The position numbers and the translations under genes are program-made. From Candidatus Hodarchaeota archaeon (GTDB lineage Archaea > Asgardarchaeota > Heimdallarchaeia > Hodarchaeales > Hodarchaeaceae), in NCBI GenBank assembly GCA_016840035.1, contig JAEOTC010000076.1:9419-73418 (forward strand): a DNA stretch of 64,000 bases, given 5' to 3'. Positions 25,421 to 34,594 of the stretch are shown here, piece by piece; the stretch's first letter is position 1; every line of letters starts with the position of its first letter. Below the pieces are notes generated by a model. That model was not told the DNA's origin and made no database searches. It saw only the letters and a list, made by a program, of their open reading frames with translations.

Positions 25421-25667
25421 TTTAATTGTATCCTAGAAAGTTTAGTGATTTTTAGGGCGAGTTTTCCTTGTTTACTAAGAAGTCGACTGTTAATGTTATA
25501 AATATCTAAGGAGGATAAAGAGATTAAATTCTTTATTCAGGTTCACAGCATTATTGTAAGAGAAGAAATCAATAACTATTGAACCTAAAGGGATGAAAAT
25601 CTTTTTGGAAAAACTGTAATTGATACAGATTATTATATAGGTGCCTGTAAAAGTGACCATAAACAAA

Positions 25668-26702
25668 ATGTACAACTTACTTTCGGAACTCGTTGTTATT
25701 CCTGGCCCAGTTGGGAGAGAAGAGCAAGTGCAGCAATTTTTAGCTGATAAATGGGAAAAATTCAATCTGAAAACTGAAATAGATAGGATAGGAAATCTTT
25801 ATGGCCATATTTCCGGTGAAGGGCCTCATTGGGCAATCGTATCCCATGCAGATACCATTGGATTTCTAGTGCAACAGATCCTAACAGACGGTTTCTTAAA
25901 GATGGCATTTAACACCGCAGCAACCACACCAGATGCACGTTTTCTTGCAGGATCAACGGTTAGATTTCTTACTGATAACTCAGAAGAAGTCCTTGGATAT
26001 TTTGGTTTAAGAAGTGGGCATTTAGCAGGAATTGAGGGAAAGAAAAAACCAATCCTATTTGATGAGATGTTTATCGACTTGGGAGTAAAATCAAGTGAAG
26101 AGGTTACAAATTTAGGCATTGATATTGGTACCCCTGCAGTTTTTAATTCCCCCTTAGTTCAAATTCAAAATAATGTCGTTGGTCCCTCCATGGATAACCG
26201 AGTAGGATCCACAATTCAAACCATTTTAGCAGAAAACTTAATGAAGAAGAAAAACAAACCAAATCTCACGTTAATTTCTACAGTTCAAGAAGAAATTGGT
26301 ATGAAGGGAGCTGCTGCTGCAGCTGTAGCTGAAAAAGGTAAGTTTGATGGAGTAATTAATTTGGATGTGGGATTGACAGGAGATATTCCATCATCTAAAA
26401 ACGACTTTCTACCAACTAAGTTGAGTTCTGGACCCATCCTTGTCGTAAAGGACTTTTCCATTCACTATTCACATTCATTGTTAACTTCACTGGCGAAATT
26501 AGCAAAAGAGAAGAATATTCCCGTCCAGAAGGCCGTATTCAAAAATTATAACACTGACGGAATGTATTTCTTTATGAACGGGCATCCTACCCTAACTGTT
26601 TCTATACCGTGTAGATATACACACACAAACTTTGAAACAATTAATTTATCAGACATTCAATATACACTAAAGCTCTTGGAATCACTATTTACATCTTCAT
26701 AA
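25668..26702 (+). CDS. M42-family (TET/FrvX-like) aminopeptidase
   Basis: N-terminal LLSELVVIPGPVGREEQV, then HADTIGFLV and ..DNRVG.. motifs typical of M42. Confidence 0.85.
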   Translation: MYNLLSELVVIPGPVGREEQVQQFLADKWEKFNLKTEIDRIGNLYGHISGEGPHWAIVSHADTIGFLVQQILTDGFLKMAFNTAATTPDARFLAGSTVRFLTDNSEEVLGYFGLRSGHLAGIEGKKKPILFDEMFIDLGVKSSEEVTNLGIDIGTPAVFNSPLVQIQNNVVGPSMDNRVGSTIQTILAENLMKKKNKPNLTLISTVQEEIGMKGAAAAAVAEKGKFDGVINLDVGLTGDIPSSKNDFLPTKLSSGPILVVKDFSIHYSHSLLTSLAKLAKEKNIPVQKAVFKNYNTDGMYFFMNGHPTLTVSIPCRYTHTNFETINLSDIQYTLKLLESLFTSS

Positions 26703-26731
26703 TACCTAATGACCAGGTGTGTACGCAAATT

Positions 26732-28435
26732 ATGAATCAGAAGAACGTAATTCTAGTAAAACTAGGTGGAAGTTTAATAACGTATAAACAAGATGAGGAC
26801 CGTATCAATAAATATTTATCTGTGATAGATCAATTTCGAGGAGGAACAGCGTCCTTAGAAGATTTAACTACCACAATAGCCCATCTCTTAAATACGAGTA
26901 CGTTGAAAGAAATTTTTAGAACTCTTAACATATATATAAAGAGTAATCCCATGTCAAAAGTTATTATAGTACATGGAGCTGGATCCATTGGACATTCTCT
27001 TGTATTACACTTGTTGAAATCGGAAACAGACTTAGAATACGTTTATCCGATTATCAAGCTCGCTGTTTCCATTCAGAATCATCTCATTGCTGGTTTAGGG
27101 ATACAATTTGGAATAAACGCAATCTCCTTCTCCTCACATCAAATCATGCTTGGATATCCTACTGATCGAACATCCTCTCCCCGAATTGATGCAGCTGATC
27201 TTTCCACCCTTGAAACAATGATTACGAACACAGATTCTGTTCCAATCTTTTTTGGAGATGTAGGGTTTGCTCAAGGAACACACGCGGATCTACCTGGAGA
27301 ATGGAAGGTTTTTTCTGGAGATTTAATCCCAAATGCACTAGCACGTAGTTTTTCTTACCTGCAAATTGATAAAGCGATCTTTTTGACACAAGTTCCAGGA
27401 AAAATGACTGGGATCTATTCTAAAGATCCATCATTGCCAGACTCTCAGCTGATTCGAAGGATTGAAGTTGGCCCTCGAACAAATCGTTACTATAATTCGG
27501 AGAATAATGAAATCCACTTTCAGCAAGAGGGTACTCAGTCAAAATTTGATGTAACTGATGCAATGGAAGGGAAACTAAGAAATTTAATTGGTTTAGCTCA
27601 TGAAAACGTTACTAGCTGGGTTATTGGATTCGAGGAATTTGATAAAGCATTACAAGGAGAAAATGTTGGGACAAGAGTCATTCCCGAGAAGGACCTTAAC
27701 ACCAATGTAGTATTCCTAGGAAGAGGAGATGCATTTGGATCAGGGGGGTATAAGAGCGCATCAATTCTCCTAGAGTTGGAAGTAAAAACGATATTGTTAG
27801 ATTGCGGTCCTCATACACTTCAAGCACTCAAAGCATCTGGCAGAGAAACTACTCAAGTTGATTGGATAGTCATTTCTCATTTTCATGGAGATCATTTTGG
27901 GGGGATCCCCTATTTACTCCTAGAATTGACGTTTCAACACCAAAGAACACATCCTTTGAAGATCATTGGCCCTCCAGGAATAGAGAAAATTGTGAATGAT
28001 CTTTTTACCGTACTTTATGAACGAGAATCATCAAAAACTCGTCCCTTCCCTATTGAATATACAGAAATTACCCCTGATACACCTTATGAGAACAACGGTA
28101 TTAAAATAAAAGCTTTTTCAATGAACCATACACCAGAGGCACAAGGATATAGAATACAATCGCGTTCGGTTACGATTGCTTATACAGGTGATACTGGTTG
28201 GACTGAGAACCTTATCCCGTTAATTTCTGACACACAGCTAGCGATATTGGAATGTAATTTCTACCAAAGCCAATTTGAAACCCATTTAAATTGGCAAGAA
28301 GTGCTTAAACTTTATAATCTTGCAGAAAAAACTGCCGTAATTCATCTTGGTGCAGAAATGGTTACAGAGGTTCACAGACTAATTGGCCAAAAGGGCCTAT
28401 TGATTCCACTCGAAGGCCAAATCATCCGAATTTAA
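26732..28435 (+). CDS. Fusion: isopentenyl-phosphate-kinase-like (amino-acid-kinase fold) N-domain + metallo-beta-lactamase-fold C-domain
   Basis: N-domain: VILVKLGGSLITYK, IIVHGAGSIGH, SGD, DVTDAMEGK (IPK-type motifs). C-domain: HFHGDHFGG (HxHxDH), later ..MNHT.. and ..YTGDTG.. (MBL/RNase Z-like). Confidence 0.8.
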   Translation: MNQKNVILVKLGGSLITYKQDEDRINKYLSVIDQFRGGTASLEDLTTTIAHLLNTSTLKEIFRTLNIYIKSNPMSKVIIVHGAGSIGHSLVLHLLKSETDLEYVYPIIKLAVSIQNHLIAGLGIQFGINAISFSSHQIMLGYPTDRTSSPRIDAADLSTLETMITNTDSVPIFFGDVGFAQGTHADLPGEWKVFSGDLIPNALARSFSYLQIDKAIFLTQVPGKMTGIYSKDPSLPDSQLIRRIEVGPRTNRYYNSENNEIHFQQEGTQSKFDVTDAMEGKLRNLIGLAHENVTSWVIGFEEFDKALQGENVGTRVIPEKDLNTNVVFLGRGDAFGSGGYKSASILLELEVKTILLDCGPHTLQALKASGRETTQVDWIVISHFHGDHFGGIPYLLLELTFQHQRTHPLKIIGPPGIEKIVNDLFTVLYERESSKTRPFPIEYTEITPDTPYENNGIKIKAFSMNHTPEAQGYRIQSRSVTIAYTGDTGWTENLIPLISDTQLAILECNFYQSQFETHLNWQEVLKLYNLAEKTAVIHLGAEMVTEVHRLIGQKGLLIPLEGQIIRI

Positions 28436-28440
28436 ACAGG

Positions 28441-28719
28441 TCATCGAACTTTTCCTAGTGATTCCAATCGCCATACAATATTTTTCCTTTTTCCATCCAC
28501 CATTGTAACTACTCGATAGGAAACCTTCCCCTCGACTCGCATTTGAGTTAATACCATTGGAATTCTATCAGCACAGTCTTGATTAAACATACTTACACGA
28601 TCAACAATCTCAGTTGTACTTGCTTCTTGGAGCTCTCGCAAAACAACCTCTATCCATTTTTCCGTTCCAGAGGTATCAGAGTTATCCATTTTGAGTGAAT
28701 CTCCAGTTTCATTCTTCAT
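28441..28719 (-). CDS. Small winged-helix-like protein, divergent from the GTPase gene
   Basis: 92 aa. ..STTEIVDRVSMFNQDCADRIPMVLTQMRVEGKVSYRVV.. shows an HTH plus beta-wing pattern. Confidence 0.5.
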   Translation of the reverse strand: MKNETGDSLKMDNSDTSGTEKWIEVVLRELQEASTTEIVDRVSMFNQDCADRIPMVLTQMRVEGKVSYRVVTMVDGKRKNIVWRLESLGKVR

Positions 28720-28968
28720 AAAACAAGGGAAAAAACATCTATTTCAGTATCAGTCTGTTTTGGTCAGGAATACGAATTTGTATTTATTTCAGTTACCTTA
28801 TATTTGAAAGAATTTATGAGATTAAATTGTATTCTATCATCATACGATATTTTAAGATTAACAAGTAAAGAAATGGGGATTAAAAGTATCTTCATCCTAC
28901 CATGCCTCCAAGTATAAAACTTAAAAATGTCGAACTCGGATAAGAACGCAAGTTTTAGGCGGAAAATC

Positions 28969-29529
28969 ATGACAAATAAAGAAATTAAGCATGTATTAAA
29001 AATACTCTTACTTGGGGACGGAGCTGTAGGTAAAACTTCGTTAATTTTGAGATTTATAGAAAATAAATTCAAGGATGAATATTCAGTTAGCTTAGGCGTT
29101 GATTTTCTAACTAAAACAATTGAATTCATTGATGAAGATGATATTAAGCGAACTGTTTCTCTACAGGTCTGGGATATCGCAGGACAGGCCCGACATGTCT
29201 CCTATTCACATCTATATTTGAAAGGGGCATTAGGTGCTTTCTATGTATTTGATTTAACAAGAAAGGAGACTCTCGCCCATATTCAGAATCGTTGGCAACT
29301 TCAGGCTCTCAAAGCATCGCCCAACCATCTTGGAATCCTTATTGGAAATAAGGCTGACCTAGTTAAGGAACGAGATATTCCAAAAACACAATTAAAGAAA
29401 ATAATTGATAGTATGCACGTCTTTGATTTCATTGAGACCTCCGCGAAGACCGGCAGGAACGTTAACAAGGCTTTCCGAGTGTTAACCACAGAAATCCTTA
29501 ACGTAAAACCAAAAAAATTCCTGAAGTGA
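28969..29529 (+). CDS. Rab/Ras-like small GTPase
   Basis: G1 GDGAVGKTS; switch I YSVSLGVDF (Rab-like TIGVDF); G3 WDIAGQ; G4 GNKADL; G5 ETSAKTG. No C-terminal Cys prenylation motif; the tail is basic (KPKKFLK). Confidence 0.9.
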   Translation: MTNKEIKHVLKILLLGDGAVGKTSLILRFIENKFKDEYSVSLGVDFLTKTIEFIDEDDIKRTVSLQVWDIAGQARHVSYSHLYLKGALGAFYVFDLTRKETLAHIQNRWQLQALKASPNHLGILIGNKADLVKERDIPKTQLKKIIDSMHVFDFIETSAKTGRNVNKAFRVLTTEILNVKPKKFLK

Positions 29530-29533
29530 GAAC

Positions 29534-30304
29534 ATGTCCCCTTTAACTGAATTTAAAGCTGTGAAAGCATTTTTTATTTTTGAGAAGGATCAAGGTACAA
29601 CACTCTTCACACGATCATACGAACGAAGCTCTACTGCTCCCGATGCACATCTAGTGGTGGCATTTCTAACCGCAATGTTTTCCTTTGCTAAAACAACTTC
29701 ATTAAGTGACCTCCGCGTTGTTGATATGACTGATATTCGGTTTTCTTTTATTGAGAAAAATGGGCTAATTTTTGCAGTTTTAGTCTCCCCATTAGTATCT
29801 CCGCTAGATATCCAATTTAAATTGTCCACTATTGCGAGTTTATTTTTTTCTGACTACGGGGCAAAATTAGAATCAATAGATATTGTCGACACGGAAATGT
29901 TTTCAAGTTTCAATGATTGTGTGGATGAAGTATTTACTGGGGAAACACGACAGATGCTTAAATCTTCAAAAAATGCGGCACTGTTTTACCTAAAAAAATT
30001 AGTTTCTAAAGAGGAAACGGGGGCGCGTGGTGCAATGATTTTATCTTTCACTGGTGATATACTCTTAGAATATAAGATGGACCAACCACGTATGGCTGCT
30101 GCTATTCGTATACTAAATGTTGGAACATACATGACAAATCTCCGATATCTAGTTGTAGCTTCGGAGTCAACTCATTTAGTGGCGTATAAAATAAGTGAAG
30201 GATTACTGCTTGCCGTTGATGGTCACCCCTCATATGGATTAGAAGATCTTGTGGTAAATGTTTCAGAAACAGTCAAGCAGATTAAGGAAATAATCCCTCA
30301 TTAG
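29534..30304 (+). CDS. Two-domain longin-like + Roadblock/LC7(MglB)-like protein, putative GTPase regulator
   Basis: Starts 4 nt after the GTPase stop. N-half pattern is beta-beta-alpha-beta-beta-beta-alpha (FFIFEKDQGTTLFTRSY..AFLTAMFSFAK..LRVVDM..RFSFIEKNGLIFAVLVS). C-half (GARGAMILSFTGDILLEY..AAAIRILNVG..LRYLVVASESTHLVAYKISEGLLLAV) has a roadblock-type pattern. Confidence 0.75.
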   Translation: MSPLTEFKAVKAFFIFEKDQGTTLFTRSYERSSTAPDAHLVVAFLTAMFSFAKTTSLSDLRVVDMTDIRFSFIEKNGLIFAVLVSPLVSPLDIQFKLSTIASLFFSDYGAKLESIDIVDTEMFSSFNDCVDEVFTGETRQMLKSSKNAALFYLKKLVSKEETGARGAMILSFTGDILLEYKMDQPRMAAAIRILNVGTYMTNLRYLVVASESTHLVAYKISEGLLLAVDGHPSYGLEDLVVNVSETVKQIKEIIPH

Positions 30305-30458
30305 CCTTGAGACTTAAAAAATATCGGAACTAATAGGATAATTTTGATATCTTTAACAAAACCCTCAAGTAATGAGATCGATCAGCATAAATTAGAACGA
30401 TAAACAAGGTTCCTATCACCTTATATGTGAACTAACTAAGATTTAAAGGTGTACCCAG

Positions 30459-30935
30459 ATGGAAAATGCTTCTTTTTTTCAACAACCCCCATTCAGTGAA
30501 TTTCCGTTCAATACATTCCCCCAAATAATGGACAAGCTAGAATATCTCGGCCGTGATGAGGAACAAACACCATATGAAATTTCTCCAGGAACTGACCTGT
30601 GCATCAGTGATACATATTATTCATTAGGGTTTTTAACCTTTCTTTGCTCCTTTGGTAGGGTGAAAACCAATGATGGCAAATGGTTTTTGGATCCCAAAGG
30701 AAAACCTATTGCTGAAAAGCCGTATCGGTATGCCTTAATTTCTGATGCAGTCTCAATCCTAAAAGAACTATTGAAGGGAGCCAAAACTATAAAAGAGCTT
30801 GATGAATCGTTATCTACCTTGTCTACGGATGATATAACATTATATCTCAAGATTCTAAGTTTAATTACTCAAAAGGGGAAGGTTATTCAAGAAGCAAAGG
30901 GTTGGGACGCTACCTATGTACTTAAAGATTGGTAA
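30459..30935 (+). CDS. Hypothetical protein with F/P-rich N-terminus and two winged-helix-like halves
   Basis: 158 aa; AGGTG lies 8 nt upstream of the ATG. QQPPFSEFPFNTFPQ is followed by two HTH-plus-wing-like segments (..FLTFLCSFGRVKTNDGKWFLD.. ; ..ITLYLKILSLITQKGKVIQEAKGWDATYVL). Confidence 0.55.
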   Translation: MENASFFQQPPFSEFPFNTFPQIMDKLEYLGRDEEQTPYEISPGTDLCISDTYYSLGFLTFLCSFGRVKTNDGKWFLDPKGKPIAEKPYRYALISDAVSILKELLKGAKTIKELDESLSTLSTDDITLYLKILSLITQKGKVIQEAKGWDATYVLKDW

Positions 30936-31060
30936 GATTAATCTTTGAAGTTCCTCACATTAGCAATACTTACAATCACATTAGTCTAACTCCTTCAATG
31001 TATCCTAGTTCCTTTCAAGAGGAAATAAAAACACAATTTTACTTCAAATTTGGGATTATC

Positions 31061-32125
31061 ATGACCGATGTTGACTTAAATTCATTAAAACAAACCCAAC
31101 GCGAACTTTCTGAAATTATTGGAGTCTCAGGATTTGAATTGCCTGTAGTTGAATATATTCAATCCAAAATTGAGAGCTTAGTTGATAAAGTTTGGATTGA
31201 TCCCTTAGGTTCATTACTAGCTGTAAAAGAAGGAGAAAATCCTACGGAAAGGATTCTTCTTGATGCGCATGTGGATGAAATTGGATTTATGATTAGTTAT
31301 ATTGAACCAAAGGGATTTTTACGTTTTGTACCTATCGGAGGATGGGATACTCGAATTTTACTTGGACAATCAGTGAAGATCATTGGAAAAAATAACCAGA
31401 TATATGACGGAATAACGGGTTCTAAACCTCCTCATCTAACAACACAGAAGGAACGAGAAACAGCGGCAAAAATATCTGAGATGTATATTGATACAGGAAT
31501 GTCATCAGAACAGATTAAAGAAGCAGGAATTGATATTGGTTCCGTAGGAACCTTATATGATCCATTTCTTGAATTTCCCAATGGTATGATTAGAGGGAAA
31601 GCTTTTGATGATAGAACGGGAGTGAATGTCCTGATTCATATCATCAAAGAATTTTCAAAACGAAATCATAATGATTCACTGCTTTTCAGCTTTACTATGG
31701 GAGAGGAAGTAGGAGGACGAGGCGCGGGTCCCGCTGCTTTTTCATTAGATCCAACAATGGCTGTAGCAATTGAAAATACAACCGCGGCTGATGTTCCAGG
31801 AATTCGGGATTCCGAATGTCCAGCTTATATTGGTCGAGGGCCAGCGATTTCTATCGCAGATCGTTCGATGATTGCGCATGCTAAAGTCAATAAACGGTTA
31901 ATTGAGAATGCAAAATACGAAAATATTCCATACCACATGAAAAAGCCAATTTTCGGGGGAACTAATGCTGGAATCATCCATAAAACACGAGCAGGTATTC
32001 CATCCTCCGTTGTTTCTGTACCGTGTCGATATATTCATTCACCAACATCCTTATTATTACTTAAGGATATTTATCACACAGTACAGTTGCTATCAGCATT
32101 TATTAGAAATCCTAAATCGGTATAA
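31061..32125 (+). CDS. M42-family (TET/FrvX-like) aminopeptidase, paralog of 25668..26702
   Basis: ..LSEIIGVSGFE.., LDAHVDEIGFMI, FDDRTGV and PCRYIHSP motifs. The track's TTG at 30929 overlaps the upstream gene, so ATG 31061 is preferred. Confidence 0.85.
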   Translation: MTDVDLNSLKQTQRELSEIIGVSGFELPVVEYIQSKIESLVDKVWIDPLGSLLAVKEGENPTERILLDAHVDEIGFMISYIEPKGFLRFVPIGGWDTRILLGQSVKIIGKNNQIYDGITGSKPPHLTTQKERETAAKISEMYIDTGMSSEQIKEAGIDIGSVGTLYDPFLEFPNGMIRGKAFDDRTGVNVLIHIIKEFSKRNHNDSLLFSFTMGEEVGGRGAGPAAFSLDPTMAVAIENTTAADVPGIRDSECPAYIGRGPAISIADRSMIAHAKVNKRLIENAKYENIPYHMKKPIFGGTNAGIIHKTRAGIPSSVVSVPCRYIHSPTSLLLLKDIYHTVQLLSAFIRNPKSV

Positions 32126-32227: not shown

Positions 32228-34594
32228 ATGACTGAAGAATCGGTAATTTGGGATTTAAAGGATATTAAGAGTAAAGATACGGAAATAAAGTGGACTGCTG
32301 TTAATAATCTGAGTAAATTCTTAACTGATAACCCCGAAAATTTTCGTTCCCGGATGATCATTAAATCATTTCTAACCATGATAAATGATCCTCATGATGG
32401 AATCCGTGAAACCATTTTCTCAACTTTAATGCGAAAACTTCAACCAAAGCAAATTGAGGGACTCATTAAGCGTGGGTTGGAAGATTCAAGTCCAAGTATA
32501 CGGTCCTTAAGTTTAGAATGGTTAAATACGACAAATCACAATACTATTACTACTCAAGCTATAGCTAGCTTACAAGATCCAAGTGAAGCAGTACGGAAAA
32601 TCGCTTTAGATATTGTAATAGCACGGGATATAAAGGGAGTTGAACAGAGATTATTGGAACTCCTTAGAAAGGAGAAAGGTGGATTACGTAGGACTGTTAT
32701 TTATGCTTTAGGGAAAATGCAGACTGTTGAAGCAGTAGGCACTCTTGTTGAAATAATGAGAAATCAAGAGTTTGATGATTGGACTAGAAATCAAGCTAGT
32801 TCGGCATTGGAGCATTTAGGAGGGAAAGAATTAATAATTCCCTTTATTGGAAATTTAATTGACGAGAATGATTATGTTCGTCAAACTGCAGCCGCTTTTT
32901 TAAAGAAGAATGAAGCTGATGTGCTTTCCGTCATCTTGAATCAAGCTAAATTGGATTATGTTGCTCTTCTTCAGCATGCAACGTCAACTACAAAGCAGGA
33001 CTTTAGTGGAGTGATAAAAACTCTAACAACTCAAATGGCTACTACGATACTTTCTCTTACAGATCAGCTTCAGGGGCGCGAGCAATTCTCAATACATACT
33101 TTATCTGAAGAATGGGGGGCCTCACCAATTGCAGTACGTATTATTCTTAGCAATTTCCTTGATCTTAGACTCTTTCCCCAACAAGAAGACAAATTTTACA
33201 CTGAATTAGGATTAAAGAACATTCTAATCAAGGAAGTTCAAGAAAGAAATTCTCTTGATCTTAAAAGTATAAAGAAAGAGTCTCCTTTTGATACAATAGA
33301 ACTTGAGGTTATTAAAGAAATATTAGGATCCATTGATACTATTCAATGTGTTTTCATGAATTTATATGTCAGTAGACAAACGTTTATGGAGATTTCCGAA
33401 GAATTCAAAGCTAGCGGCCAATTACCCCTCAAAACAATAAGTGACAAAGTGAATCAACCTCTAGAAATCGTTACAGAGGAATTTACAAAAGGTTTGATTC
33501 CCTCCGATGAGGGATGGATTAATAATCAAGGCGAATTTCTTACTCTCAAATTTATCGGTCAAAAGGTTCAAGAATCTCTTTCAAAATATCATATTATTGG
33601 CATAAAACCATTCTTACATAGCTTAGGGGAACCTAATGTTGATCATGCTGTATTGAGGAGGATTATTGAACGACATTCTGCTGGAAAGTGGTTAAATGAC
33701 ATTCAAGTTTATATCACTGCAGATGAGTTCAAGGAGATTGAAGAAAATTCGGTTAGAATTGATGAAGAAATTGTTAGGCATCTACTCGAGCCTATAGACA
33801 TGAAATTTCCAGTCTTTCTGGAAAGCTTACAAAAAGTTCTTGAAATAAGCACATATCAATCTTCAGGGGGACAGTTAATATCACTAGAAAGTCTTTACCC
33901 CCTTATTCAGCAGGAAATCAAGGAGAAGAGATATTTACCTCTAGATGGGTTTTTGGAGAGTAATGCTTTGGAATTAAATGTAAAACCTGTGATCCTTGAG
34001 TATTTAAATCAGAATTACCAGGGTAGGACTGATAATAATTCCGTCTACTTCTTTACAAATGATGTTTTAAGGGATGTACAAACAGAGTTTCAAAACAAGA
34101 CCCGTGTAAATTATAGTGTACTTGGGTTTAAACTGAATTTACCTATTGAGATTTTACAACAAATTATTATTGAAATTCTTAAAATTTCAGGAATTCACAA
34201 TAACCTTGGAGAATTCATTACTCTTGACGGTGTTAGGAACGAATATAAGCAAATTATCACCCATAAAGCAGAGTTCCCTTTAATCACCCTCCATGAAATC
34301 TTAGAAGTTATCGAGAATCAAAAAGCAATCAAAGCAATCGCCGACATTATAAAAAAGGATCCAGCAATTTATTTGTCTGTAAATGAAAAGCAAGTCTGGA
34401 CAAATCGTCGTGCGATCGAAATTGTCAACAGATTTTTGAAAAATCCCTCAAATTTAACCAGAAAGTCAATTTCTCTTTCAGAAATTAGCCAAGAAACAGA
34501 AGTATCTCGATCTGACCTCGCCAATATCATTAATACGCTCACAGAGAAAAATCTAGTGCGTGGAAGAATAAAGAAGAATAAATACGTCCAATAG
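32228..34594 (+). CDS. HEAT (PBS-lyase-type) repeat protein followed by an array of winged-helix-like modules
   Basis: The N-terminal ~230 aa hold at least 6 HEAT-like repeats (DPHDGIRETIFSTL, DSSPSIRSLSLEWL, DPSEAVRKIALDIV, RRTVIYALGKM, DWTRNQASSALEHLG, DYVRQTAAAFL). The remaining ~550 aa are a repetitive run of ~60-75-aa HTH/wing-like segments, ending ..SLSEISQETEVSRSDLANIINTLTEKNLVRGRIKKNKYV. Confidence 0.75.
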   Translation: MTEESVIWDLKDIKSKDTEIKWTAVNNLSKFLTDNPENFRSRMIIKSFLTMINDPHDGIRETIFSTLMRKLQPKQIEGLIKRGLEDSSPSIRSLSLEWLNTTNHNTITTQAIASLQDPSEAVRKIALDIVIARDIKGVEQRLLELLRKEKGGLRRTVIYALGKMQTVEAVGTLVEIMRNQEFDDWTRNQASSALEHLGGKELIIPFIGNLIDENDYVRQTAAAFLKKNEADVLSVILNQAKLDYVALLQHATSTTKQDFSGVIKTLTTQMATTILSLTDQLQGREQFSIHTLSEEWGASPIAVRIILSNFLDLRLFPQQEDKFYTELGLKNILIKEVQERNSLDLKSIKKESPFDTIELEVIKEILGSIDTIQCVFMNLYVSRQTFMEISEEFKASGQLPLKTISDKVNQPLEIVTEEFTKGLIPSDEGWINNQGEFLTLKFIGQKVQESLSKYHIIGIKPFLHSLGEPNVDHAVLRRIIERHSAGKWLNDIQVYITADEFKEIEENSVRIDEEIVRHLLEPIDMKFPVFLESLQKVLEISTYQSSGGQLISLESLYPLIQQEIKEKRYLPLDGFLESNALELNVKPVILEYLNQNYQGRTDNNSVYFFTNDVLRDVQTEFQNKTRVNYSVLGFKLNLPIEILQQIIIEILKISGIHNNLGEFITLDGVRNEYKQIITHKAEFPLITLHEILEVIENQKAIKAIADIIKKDPAIYLSVNEKQVWTNRRAIEIVNRFLKNPSNLTRKSISLSEISQETEVSRSDLANIINTLTEKNLVRGRIKKNKYVQ

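Follow-up and report, generated by a model that had tools for sequence, protein, structure and literature searches.

A Rab-like GTPase and a longin-roadblock protein encoded as a conserved gene pair in Hodarchaeales: a candidate switch and its regulator

Pairing the small GTPases of Asgard archaea with the proteins that regulate them is a recognised obstacle, and the genes concerned are usually unlinked (Tran et al., 2024). This raises the question of what is to be made of a locus in which a small GTPase gene is followed immediately by a gene for a plausible regulator. Such a locus lies in the genome of a Candidatus Hodarchaeota archaeon (assembly GCA_016840035.1), within a stretch of 64,000 nucleotides of contig JAEOTC010000076.1 (positions 9,419 to 73,418, forward strand; G+C content about 36%), which is referred to here as the window. 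Its two genes encode a Rab-like small GTPase (28927..29529, + strand) and a 256 amino acid protein in which a longin and a roadblock domain are fused (29534..30304, + strand), hereafter the partner. An earlier interpretation of this DNA, made from the letters alone (the sequence-only reading), listed these two open reading frames and two others, at 28441..28719 (- strand) and 30459..30935 (+ strand), and all four are present. We propose that the module is a co-transcribed Rab-like switch with its cognate regulator, and that the partner is most likely an exchange factor for guanine nucleotides (GEF), a reading to which we give a probability of roughly 45%. Because the two genes are strictly paired, and their pairing is conserved and inherited jointly, the locus singles out one GTPase and one regulator that can be co-expressed and assayed. 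The host archaeon is closely related to eukaryotes. Since the partner has the build of the first two-thirds of the eukaryotic enzymes by which Rab7-type switches are activated, and since the genes keep together in many genomes, the pair is a testable candidate forerunner of that machinery.

All five G motifs can be read from the GTPase (GDGAVGKTS, SLGVDF, WDIAGQ, NKAD and ETSAK for G1 to G5), and the protein matches the Pfam Ras family with an E-value of 1.1e-40 and a score of 139 bits, against a cut-off of 21.6 bits. Roc, Arf and Gtr1_RagA score far more weakly (24.4 bits for Gtr1_RagA). The best 60 sequence matches in the PDB are eukaryotic Rabs in 59 cases and a Thorarchaeota Rab (Thor-Rab) in the other; Rab1B comes first (3e-32), followed by Rab5, Rab14 and Rab11. 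On these sequence matches the GTPase is nearest to Rab, and not to Ras, Rho, Arf, Ran or Rag. Within its orthogroup the Mg-binding threonine of switch I is replaced by serine (YSVSLGVDF, compared with YISTIGVDF in Rab1). The window GTPase keeps the catalytic glutamine of WDIAGQ. The C-terminus reads ILNVKPKKFLK and the tail has no prenylation cysteine; orthologous GTPases likewise end in KKFL, with [KT][PA]KKFL conserved at their extreme C-termini. Thus the description given in the sequence-only reading, of a Rab-like GTPase with five G motifs, no C-terminal cysteine and the ending KPKKFLK, is borne out by the motifs, by Pfam and by the PDB matches.

The open reading frame of the GTPase gene would give 200 amino acids, but the true start is probably Met15 at 28969, which would give 186, because the orthologues (184 amino acids) align to the window protein only from about residue 17 and because the ATG at 28969 is preceded by a TATA-like GTATAAAA (28912-28919) and a Shine-Dalgarno-like AGGCGGA (28957-28963). 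Both elements fall in an AT-rich divergent intergenic region (28720..28968), which, from its sequence, is likely to hold the promoter elements of the operon. An antisense open reading frame of 121 amino acids (28764-29129, - strand) overlaps both the promoter region and the GTPase gene at its 5' end; it is AT-rich and of low complexity, relatives give it no support, and it is probably no gene.

The stop codon of the GTPase gene is followed, after a spacer of 4 nt, GAAC (29530..29533, + strand), by the start codon of the partner gene, and since only these 4 nt separate the genes, their translation is probably coupled. A lack of synteny in relatives had been named beforehand, in the sequence-only reading, as an outcome that would refute it. 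Yet each of the 31 loci of the clade that retain upstream DNA has the GTPase gene directly upstream of the partner gene and in the same orientation. They include orthologous loci (L001, L008-L025, L027, L031, L032 and L034) and seven loci with divergent pairs (L002/L003, L004, L005, L006, L007 and L028), 28-45% identical to the window pair and placed in unrelated neighbourhoods. Our scan of a genome collection reached mostly orthologues, and a scan of metagenomes only four close loci. Across the clade the two genes overlap by up to 4 nt, as they do in the Helarchaeota locus L028, or are separated by up to 28 nt. The pairwise divergence of the GTPases follows that of the partners, with r=0.97 over 13 pairs, and r=0.59 among the seven divergent pairs (exact permutation p=0.003), which fits inheritance and duplication as a unit, though linked genes share some history anyway. 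The adjacency of the two genes is not due to chance, and their pairing is conserved and co-inherited across Hodarchaeales and into Helarchaeota. In locus L006 a second Rab-like GTPase gene (691-1218, - strand) lies divergently beside the pair, and its product also has a Tyr-Lys (YK) dipeptide in switch I, as does the GTPase of the pair itself.

These data bear on an objection to any regulatory reading, namely that the two genes are mere neighbours and that the partner has other GTPases, or no GTPase at all, as its target. This would agree with reports that Asgard small GTPases generally lie outside operons with roadblock or longin genes, as described for strain MK-D1 (Tran et al., 2024), and with our own observation that the most distant longin-roadblock paralogs have no adjacent GTPase gene (P0061, P0075 from Baldrarchaeota, P0226, P0228 and P0229). 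However, a distance of -4 to 28 nt in every locus of the clade, including the seven divergent pairs, together with the correlated divergence of the two genes, makes the objection highly improbable; synteny effectively refutes it. The distribution also bears on a check proposed in the sequence-only reading, whether the fused architecture is conserved across Asgard lineages: it occurs in Hodarchaeales, in the Helarchaeota locus and, unpaired, in the more distant paralogs such as that of Baldrarchaeota. One metagenome-assembled genome (MAG) may hold several longin-roadblock paralogs. Two orphan paralogs without an adjacent GTPase gene (L035, 1289-1705; L037, 2341-2748) have a thioredoxin gene divergently upstream, which suggests a separate conserved context for their subfamily.

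What kind of protein is the partner? The sequence-only reading saw in it a longin and a roadblock domain fused in one polypeptide, and predicted topology, structural comparison and profile searches agree on this. An AlphaFold2 model built on 24 relatives (mean predicted local distance difference test, pLDDT, of 72; predicted template modelling score, pTM, of 0.56) shows, over residues 10-135, the canonical longin topology β-β-α-β-β-β-α-α, with strands at 10-17, 23-28, 62-64, 69-75 and 78-84 and helices at 38-52, 90-114 and 120-135. We place the longin domain at residues 8-135 (29555..29938, + strand). It is followed by an interdomain linker of low model confidence (residues 136-144; 29939..29965, + strand) that carries a G-E-T-R motif and in which residues 137-142 have a pLDDT below 50. 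The remainder, residues 145-253 (29966..30292, + strand), has the full roadblock topology α-β-β-α-β-β-β-α, including the C-terminal helix. When the model was compared with the PDB using Foldseek, the top matches were subunits of the tri-longin RabGEFs, over about 280 columns and with E-values of 9e-8 to 1e-4: Mon1-Ccz1 (9rs7, 8c7g, 9lol and 7qla), Fuzzy-Inturned/CPLANE (7q3e and 9rs9) and BLOC-3 (8zwc; HPS1 and HPS4). Among single-domain matches were Roadblock3 of MK-D1 (9jue; template modelling (TM) score 0.71), MglB (TM 0.63-0.68) and a Thorarchaeota roadblock protein, and also zeta-COP, sigma-adaptins, Bet5/Trs23 and the C-terminal domains of Rag proteins (RagC). Mon1-Ccz1 and MglB, two of the structures with which the sequence-only reading had proposed a comparison, are thus among the matches of the partner model.

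Sequence searches place the partner in a narrow group of organisms. Among 5.8 billion proteins there are 40 relatives, 35 of them near full length (253-259 amino acids, 63-100% identical), and those that carry a label are all from Hodarchaeales or Heimdallarchaeota; the partner is 95-96% identical to proteins of MAGs labelled Hodarchaeota or Heimdallarchaeota, including B3_Heim. Some of these relatives have been annotated by the Joint Genome Institute as 'Roadblock/LC7/MglB family'. Searched with a profile, 1.84 billion representative proteins yielded 101 relatives, many of them 250-270 amino acids long and matched from end to end, and a second protein search with a diverse alignment added a few distant members. 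Several profile matches were longer (412-696 amino acids) and might have been eukaryotic Fuzzy or HPS1. This was rejected when ten longer matches were scanned with Pfam: six were of Asgard type (longin with leucine-rich repeats, longin with an Arf-like GTPase, or sub-threshold longin type) and four had no match. P0113, P0078, P0084 and P0063 carry longin domains related to that of the partner in fusion with either leucine-rich repeats or Arf-like GTPase domains.

The families that the two halves resemble emerge most clearly from the family as a whole. The only Pfam match of the window partner is to Fuz_longin_1 (PF19036), the first longin domain of FUZ, MON1 and HPS1, and Robl_LC7 does not match the single sequence. 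When 27 diverse members were searched, 16 matched Fuz_longin_1 at E<0.01 (best 8.9e-6) and two Intu_longin_1, with no Pfam match to any other longin family; one relative carries a precomputed PF19036 assignment. A profile of close homologues alone found nothing among the PDB sequences, and the diverse 27-member alignment was needed. With it, the N-terminal half matched the first longin domain (LD1) of MON1 from Drosophila and human (1.7e-4, for Drosophila, to 0.006), the sole solved longin protein below E=0.01, and the C-terminal half matched 9jue (1.3e-5), the Thorarchaeota roadblock protein 7f8m (5e-4), dynein LC7 (about 4e-3) and MglB (0.016). Of the families that the sequence-only reading had thought relevant, profile searches therefore recovered Ras for the GTPase, roadblock proteins with the family profile, and a longin family below threshold; they did not recover Robl_LC7 from the single partner sequence, nor Vps25 from the winged-helix protein encoded downstream.

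The two halves are not equally conserved. In the 27-sequence alignment the mean BLOSUM sum-of-pairs score is 1.07 for the longin half and 0.45 for the roadblock half; helix α1 of the longin domain (AFLTAMFSFA) is the best-conserved helix, and together with the longin strands it makes up the most conserved elements. Because the longin half is the better conserved, these data suggest that the functional surface of the partner lies on its longin face, as it does in the tri-longin GEFs. In published structures, the subunits of those GEFs consist of a canonical longin domain (LD1), a second domain of roadblock type (LD2) and a third of lamtor type (LD3); they heterodimerise through LD1-LD1 and LD3-LD3 contacts, and the LD1 pair forms the active site. 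The substrate must carry Tyr-Lys or Tyr-Arg in switch I, the lysine or arginine being pushed into the nucleotide pocket.

Given the pairing, the Rosetta-stone fusions between related longin domains and Arf-like GTPases and the known longin/roadblock dimer platforms for GTPases, a direct regulator-client relation between the partner and the GTPase is very likely. We propose that two partner molecules would meet at the sheet edges of their longin and/or roadblock domains, as happens in every solved longin/roadblock platform, and that the resulting dimer would turn the conserved longin helix α1 face towards the GTPase switch regions and so set the nucleotide state of the GTPase. The less conserved roadblock half would serve dimerisation or the docking of further partners. 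Nucleotide exchange would be the most likely activity; we prefer it because the longin half is nearest to the LD1 of Mon1, Fuzzy and HPS1, and because the order of the domains is that of LD1-LD2 in the tri-longin RabGEF subunits. Exchange of the tri-longin kind within the family is further supported by the GTPases of the divergent pairs, four of six of which keep the YK motif (L002, L004, L006 and L028). Physical binding, the oligomeric state, the direction of regulation (GEF or GAP, a GTPase-activating protein) and the cellular role are what we infer from this analysis.

Several observations weigh against exchange activity of this kind. The window GTPase itself has YS in switch I and its orthologues have YS, or YH or YQ in three cases, and none has the lysine or arginine. 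The match of the partner to Fuz_longin_1 is sub-threshold (E=0.0032; 18.1 bits against a cut-off of 26.1; profile positions 1-100 of 125), as are those of all 11 sequences scanned singly (18-22 bits against 26.1). No eukaryotic protein, tri-longin or other, was recognised among the 101 profile matches from the 1.84 billion representatives, of which ten longer ones were scanned with Pfam. The partner has two domains and not three, and the operon has no second, Ccz1-like subunit. How the two domains of the model sit relative to each other is uncertain (pTM 0.56). The root-mean-square deviation to the tri-longin subunits is high, about 14 Å, so that the order of the domains agrees and their relative orientation either differs or is unreliably predicted. 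To our knowledge, MglA/MglB is the only prokaryotic operon of a GTPase and a roadblock protein that has been studied in depth, and it encodes a GAP. Finally, the conserved Gly-x-x-Arg of the linker could provide an arginine finger. The claim of the sequence-only reading, that the partner follows the domain grammar of the tri-longin RabGEFs, is sustained as to the LD1-LD2 order, the top Foldseek matches and the Fuz_longin_1 and Mon1 LD1 resemblance; the locus lacks two defining features of those GEFs, the third longin domain and a YK motif in the substrate GTPase.

The last of these points leads to a different direction of regulation, in which the partner is a GAP resembling MglB: a roadblock-containing dimer would bind the GTP form and speed hydrolysis, either by placing the intrinsic glutamine of WDIAGQ, which the GTPase has retained, or through R139 of the linker as an arginine finger. 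The roadblock half does resemble MglB, both in structure (TM 0.63-0.68) and by profile (E=0.016), and mglA-mglB is the classical prokaryotic operon of a GTPase and a roadblock protein. Eukaryotic longin-domain GAPs with arginine fingers exist, and similar Asgard longins have been reported. G136 and R139, which lie in the flexible loop, are invariant in an alignment of eight divergent sequences, but in the 27-sequence alignment only G136 is among the best-conserved positions and R139 is not. Moreover, it is the poorly conserved half that resembles MglB, and the longin half is nearest to an LD1 of GEF type and not to FLCN, NPRL2 or SMCR8. We had considered a longin GAP of the FLCN/NPRL2/SMCR8 type directly and set it aside, as the Gly-Pro motif and arginine finger that such longins carry between β1 and β2 are absent from the partner and there is no Pfam match to those families. 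On balance a GAP activity is possible, but we regard it as rather less than probable.

It may instead be that the partner does not alter nucleotide kinetics at all. As a platform, effector or anchor comparable to Ragulator or LC7, it would form a stable stoichiometric complex that connects the GTPase with other proteins (a stand-alone roadblock protein, for instance) or with a membrane. Tight operon coupling suggests stoichiometry of this kind, the GTPase may have a docking or membrane motif in its conserved KKFL tail, and Foldseek also matches the partner to the C-terminal roadblock domains of Rag proteins. Larger assemblies are further suggested by stand-alone Robl_LC7/MAPKK1_Int (LAMTOR3-like) genes, found directly after a longin-roadblock paralog in L004 (2643-3032) and in L029 (3746-4171, overlapping by 17 nt) and near one in L036 (4272-4646). 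No result speaks specifically against a purely structural role for the partner. The family nearest in sequence to its longin half does have catalytic activity in eukaryotes, and such a role seems to us rather unlikely.

The stand-alone genes could also supply a third longin-type domain in trans, and this opens a historical question. If the partner is an exchange factor, its family might be the surviving archaeal precursor of the tri-longin RabGEF subunits, that is, an LD1-LD2 'di-longin' exchange factor with a Rab-like client of its own, ancestrally with YK, to which the lamtor-type third domain was added later, perhaps first in trans from the stand-alone roadblock/LAMTOR3-like genes downstream of two paralogs. 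If true, the mechanism by which Rab7, Rab23 and Rab32 are activated would be older than eukaryotes. We hold this extension to be doubtful. The sequence-only reading had called the module ancestral, and of that claim a remote similarity stands, whereas no eukaryotic protein that might join the two families was recognised among the 101 profile matches. The LD1-LD2 layout shared with Mon1-Ccz1, Fuzzy-Inturned and BLOC-3, and the YK motif in some partner GTPases, nonetheless make it a testable question whether Rab activation by longin platforms, which is at the core of endolysosomal identity, arose before eukaryotes. Even if the partner proved to be a GAP or a scaffold, no Asgard Rab-like GTPase before this one would have had a regulator of longin-roadblock architecture assigned to it from the genome.

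How far does the module extend beyond the two genes? A small conserved protein of 92 amino acids, with its conserved core from about Met11, is encoded divergently from the operon (28441..28719, - strand). It holds the same position in nearly all orthologous loci (57-85% identity by tblastn) and was not found by tblastn next to the divergent pairs; it has no match in Pfam or among PDB sequences, and a role as a winged-helix regulator of the operon is possible on the evidence of its sequence and position. On the other side lies a gene for a tandem winged-helix protein of 158 amino acids (30459..30935, + strand), which the sequence-only reading took to complete the locus and thought loosely reminiscent of Vps25. 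Its tandem architecture is predicted with high confidence by an AlphaFold2 model (pLDDT 92.4) with two winged-helix units, each of three helices followed by two strands. The family has 66 relatives, all from Hodarchaeales, with an invariant N-terminal PF..FP motif and invariant W75, W149 and W158. The resemblance to Vps25 was rejected: the protein has no Pfam match and no significant match in the PDB, its top Foldseek matches are all winged-helix proteins (best SelB, E=0.09), Vps25 is not among the top 50, and the list contains no ESCRT-II chains other than 3cuq_A and 2zme_B (E=0.68-0.9; probability about 0.1 or less). Nor does the gene complete the locus. It is present in eight of 19 orthologous genome loci, there beside the M42 and HEAT-repeat genes and not beside the partner gene, and in other genomes locus tags put it far from the pair. 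It is a neighbour, outside the stable module.

The wider surroundings look like housekeeping: two M42 aminopeptidases, an amino-acid-kinase/metallo-beta-lactamase fusion, a HEAT-repeat protein, an ERCC4 nuclease and an MFS transporter. In the window and in nearly all orthologous loci, the gene immediately upstream of the module encodes the 572 amino acid fusion of an amino-acid-kinase-family domain (isopentenyl-phosphate-kinase-like at its N-terminus) to a metallo-beta-lactamase fold (26717-28435, + strand). Paralogous M42 glutamyl-aminopeptidase genes flank the locus at 25641-26702 and 30929-32125 (both + strand), and the downstream one is followed by the gene for a HEAT-repeat protein of 788 amino acids with a MarR-like C-terminus (32228-34594); these last two are syntenic in most orthologous loci. 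The spacer between the partner gene and the downstream M42 gene (30305-30928 in the window; compared with L001 and L008-L027) varies from about 0.6 to about 2.6 kb and carries differing cargo, a hexapeptide transferase and a GNAT acetyltransferase in L001 and the tandem winged-helix gene in eight loci. In L027 (4660-4743) it holds a 28 amino acid fragment, 79% identical to the longin-roadblock C-terminus and about 0.9 kb downstream of the intact gene, which looks like the remnant of a partial duplication.

It remains to place the module among what is already described. Earlier work has amply documented longin and roadblock proteins in Asgard archaea, along with Rab-like GTPases and fusions of these (Klinger et al., 2016; Liu et al., 2021; Eme et al., 2023; Tran et al., 2024). 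Mon1-like longin proteins have been catalogued there, with the remark that fusions of sigma-adaptin-type domains to Mon1 and Roadblock/LC7 domains sometimes occur (Eme et al., 2023); longin-GTPase-roadblock fusions have been reported (Tran et al., 2024), as has an operon of a LAMTOR1-like protein, a Rab-like GTPase and DENN (Liu et al., 2021). The kind of protein, even with the label Mon1-like, is thus already known, and the novelty that the sequence-only reading saw in the fusion is weakened by the catalogue of Eme et al. (2023). In the searchable literature we came upon no account of a longin-roadblock family of 250-270 amino acids, of an operon in which it is strictly paired with a Rab-like GTPase, of its LD1-LD2 correspondence to the tri-longin GEF subunits or of YK in the partner GTPases.

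The partner shares with the Asgard longin and roadblock families of eukaryotic signature proteins the same organisms and the same fold superfamily. The ArvA/ArvB/ArvC operons of vesiculation GTPases were also compared and are unrelated. Rag/Ragulator (LAMTOR) resembles the module in that roadblock platforms are bound to small GTPases, and the RagC matches in Foldseek and the weak Gtr1_RagA match in Pfam agree with this; however, Rags carry a roadblock domain of their own and heterodimerise, whereas the window GTPase consists of a Rab-type G domain and nothing more. MglA-MglB is likewise a small GTPase with a roadblock-fold regulator in one operon, and the roadblock domain of the partner superposes on MglB, C-terminal helix included, with a TM score of about 0.65. 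In contrast to MglA, the GTPase is Rab-like with DxxGQ and finds its best matches among Rabs; the regulator has an additional and better-conserved longin domain, and the GTPase gene comes first. With the tri-longin RabGEFs (Mon1-Ccz1, Fuzzy-Inturned and HPS1-HPS4/BLOC-3) the module shares an N-terminal longin domain followed by a roadblock domain in the LD1-LD2 order, weak but reciprocal and specific sequence matches between the partner longin and the LD1 of Mon1, Fuz and HPS1, and a Rab-like client, with YK in some paralogous clients. It differs from them in that the partner, whose 256 amino acids fit two domains, has no LD3 and no assigned αX helix; in that there is a single gene, in an operon with its GTPase, in place of the genes of a heterodimer pair; and in that the window GTPase has YS in place of YK and the similarity falls below Pfam thresholds. 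The locus is accordingly outside the tri-longin RabGEF family as that family is defined, and its partner plausibly works like a member of it, or like MglB.

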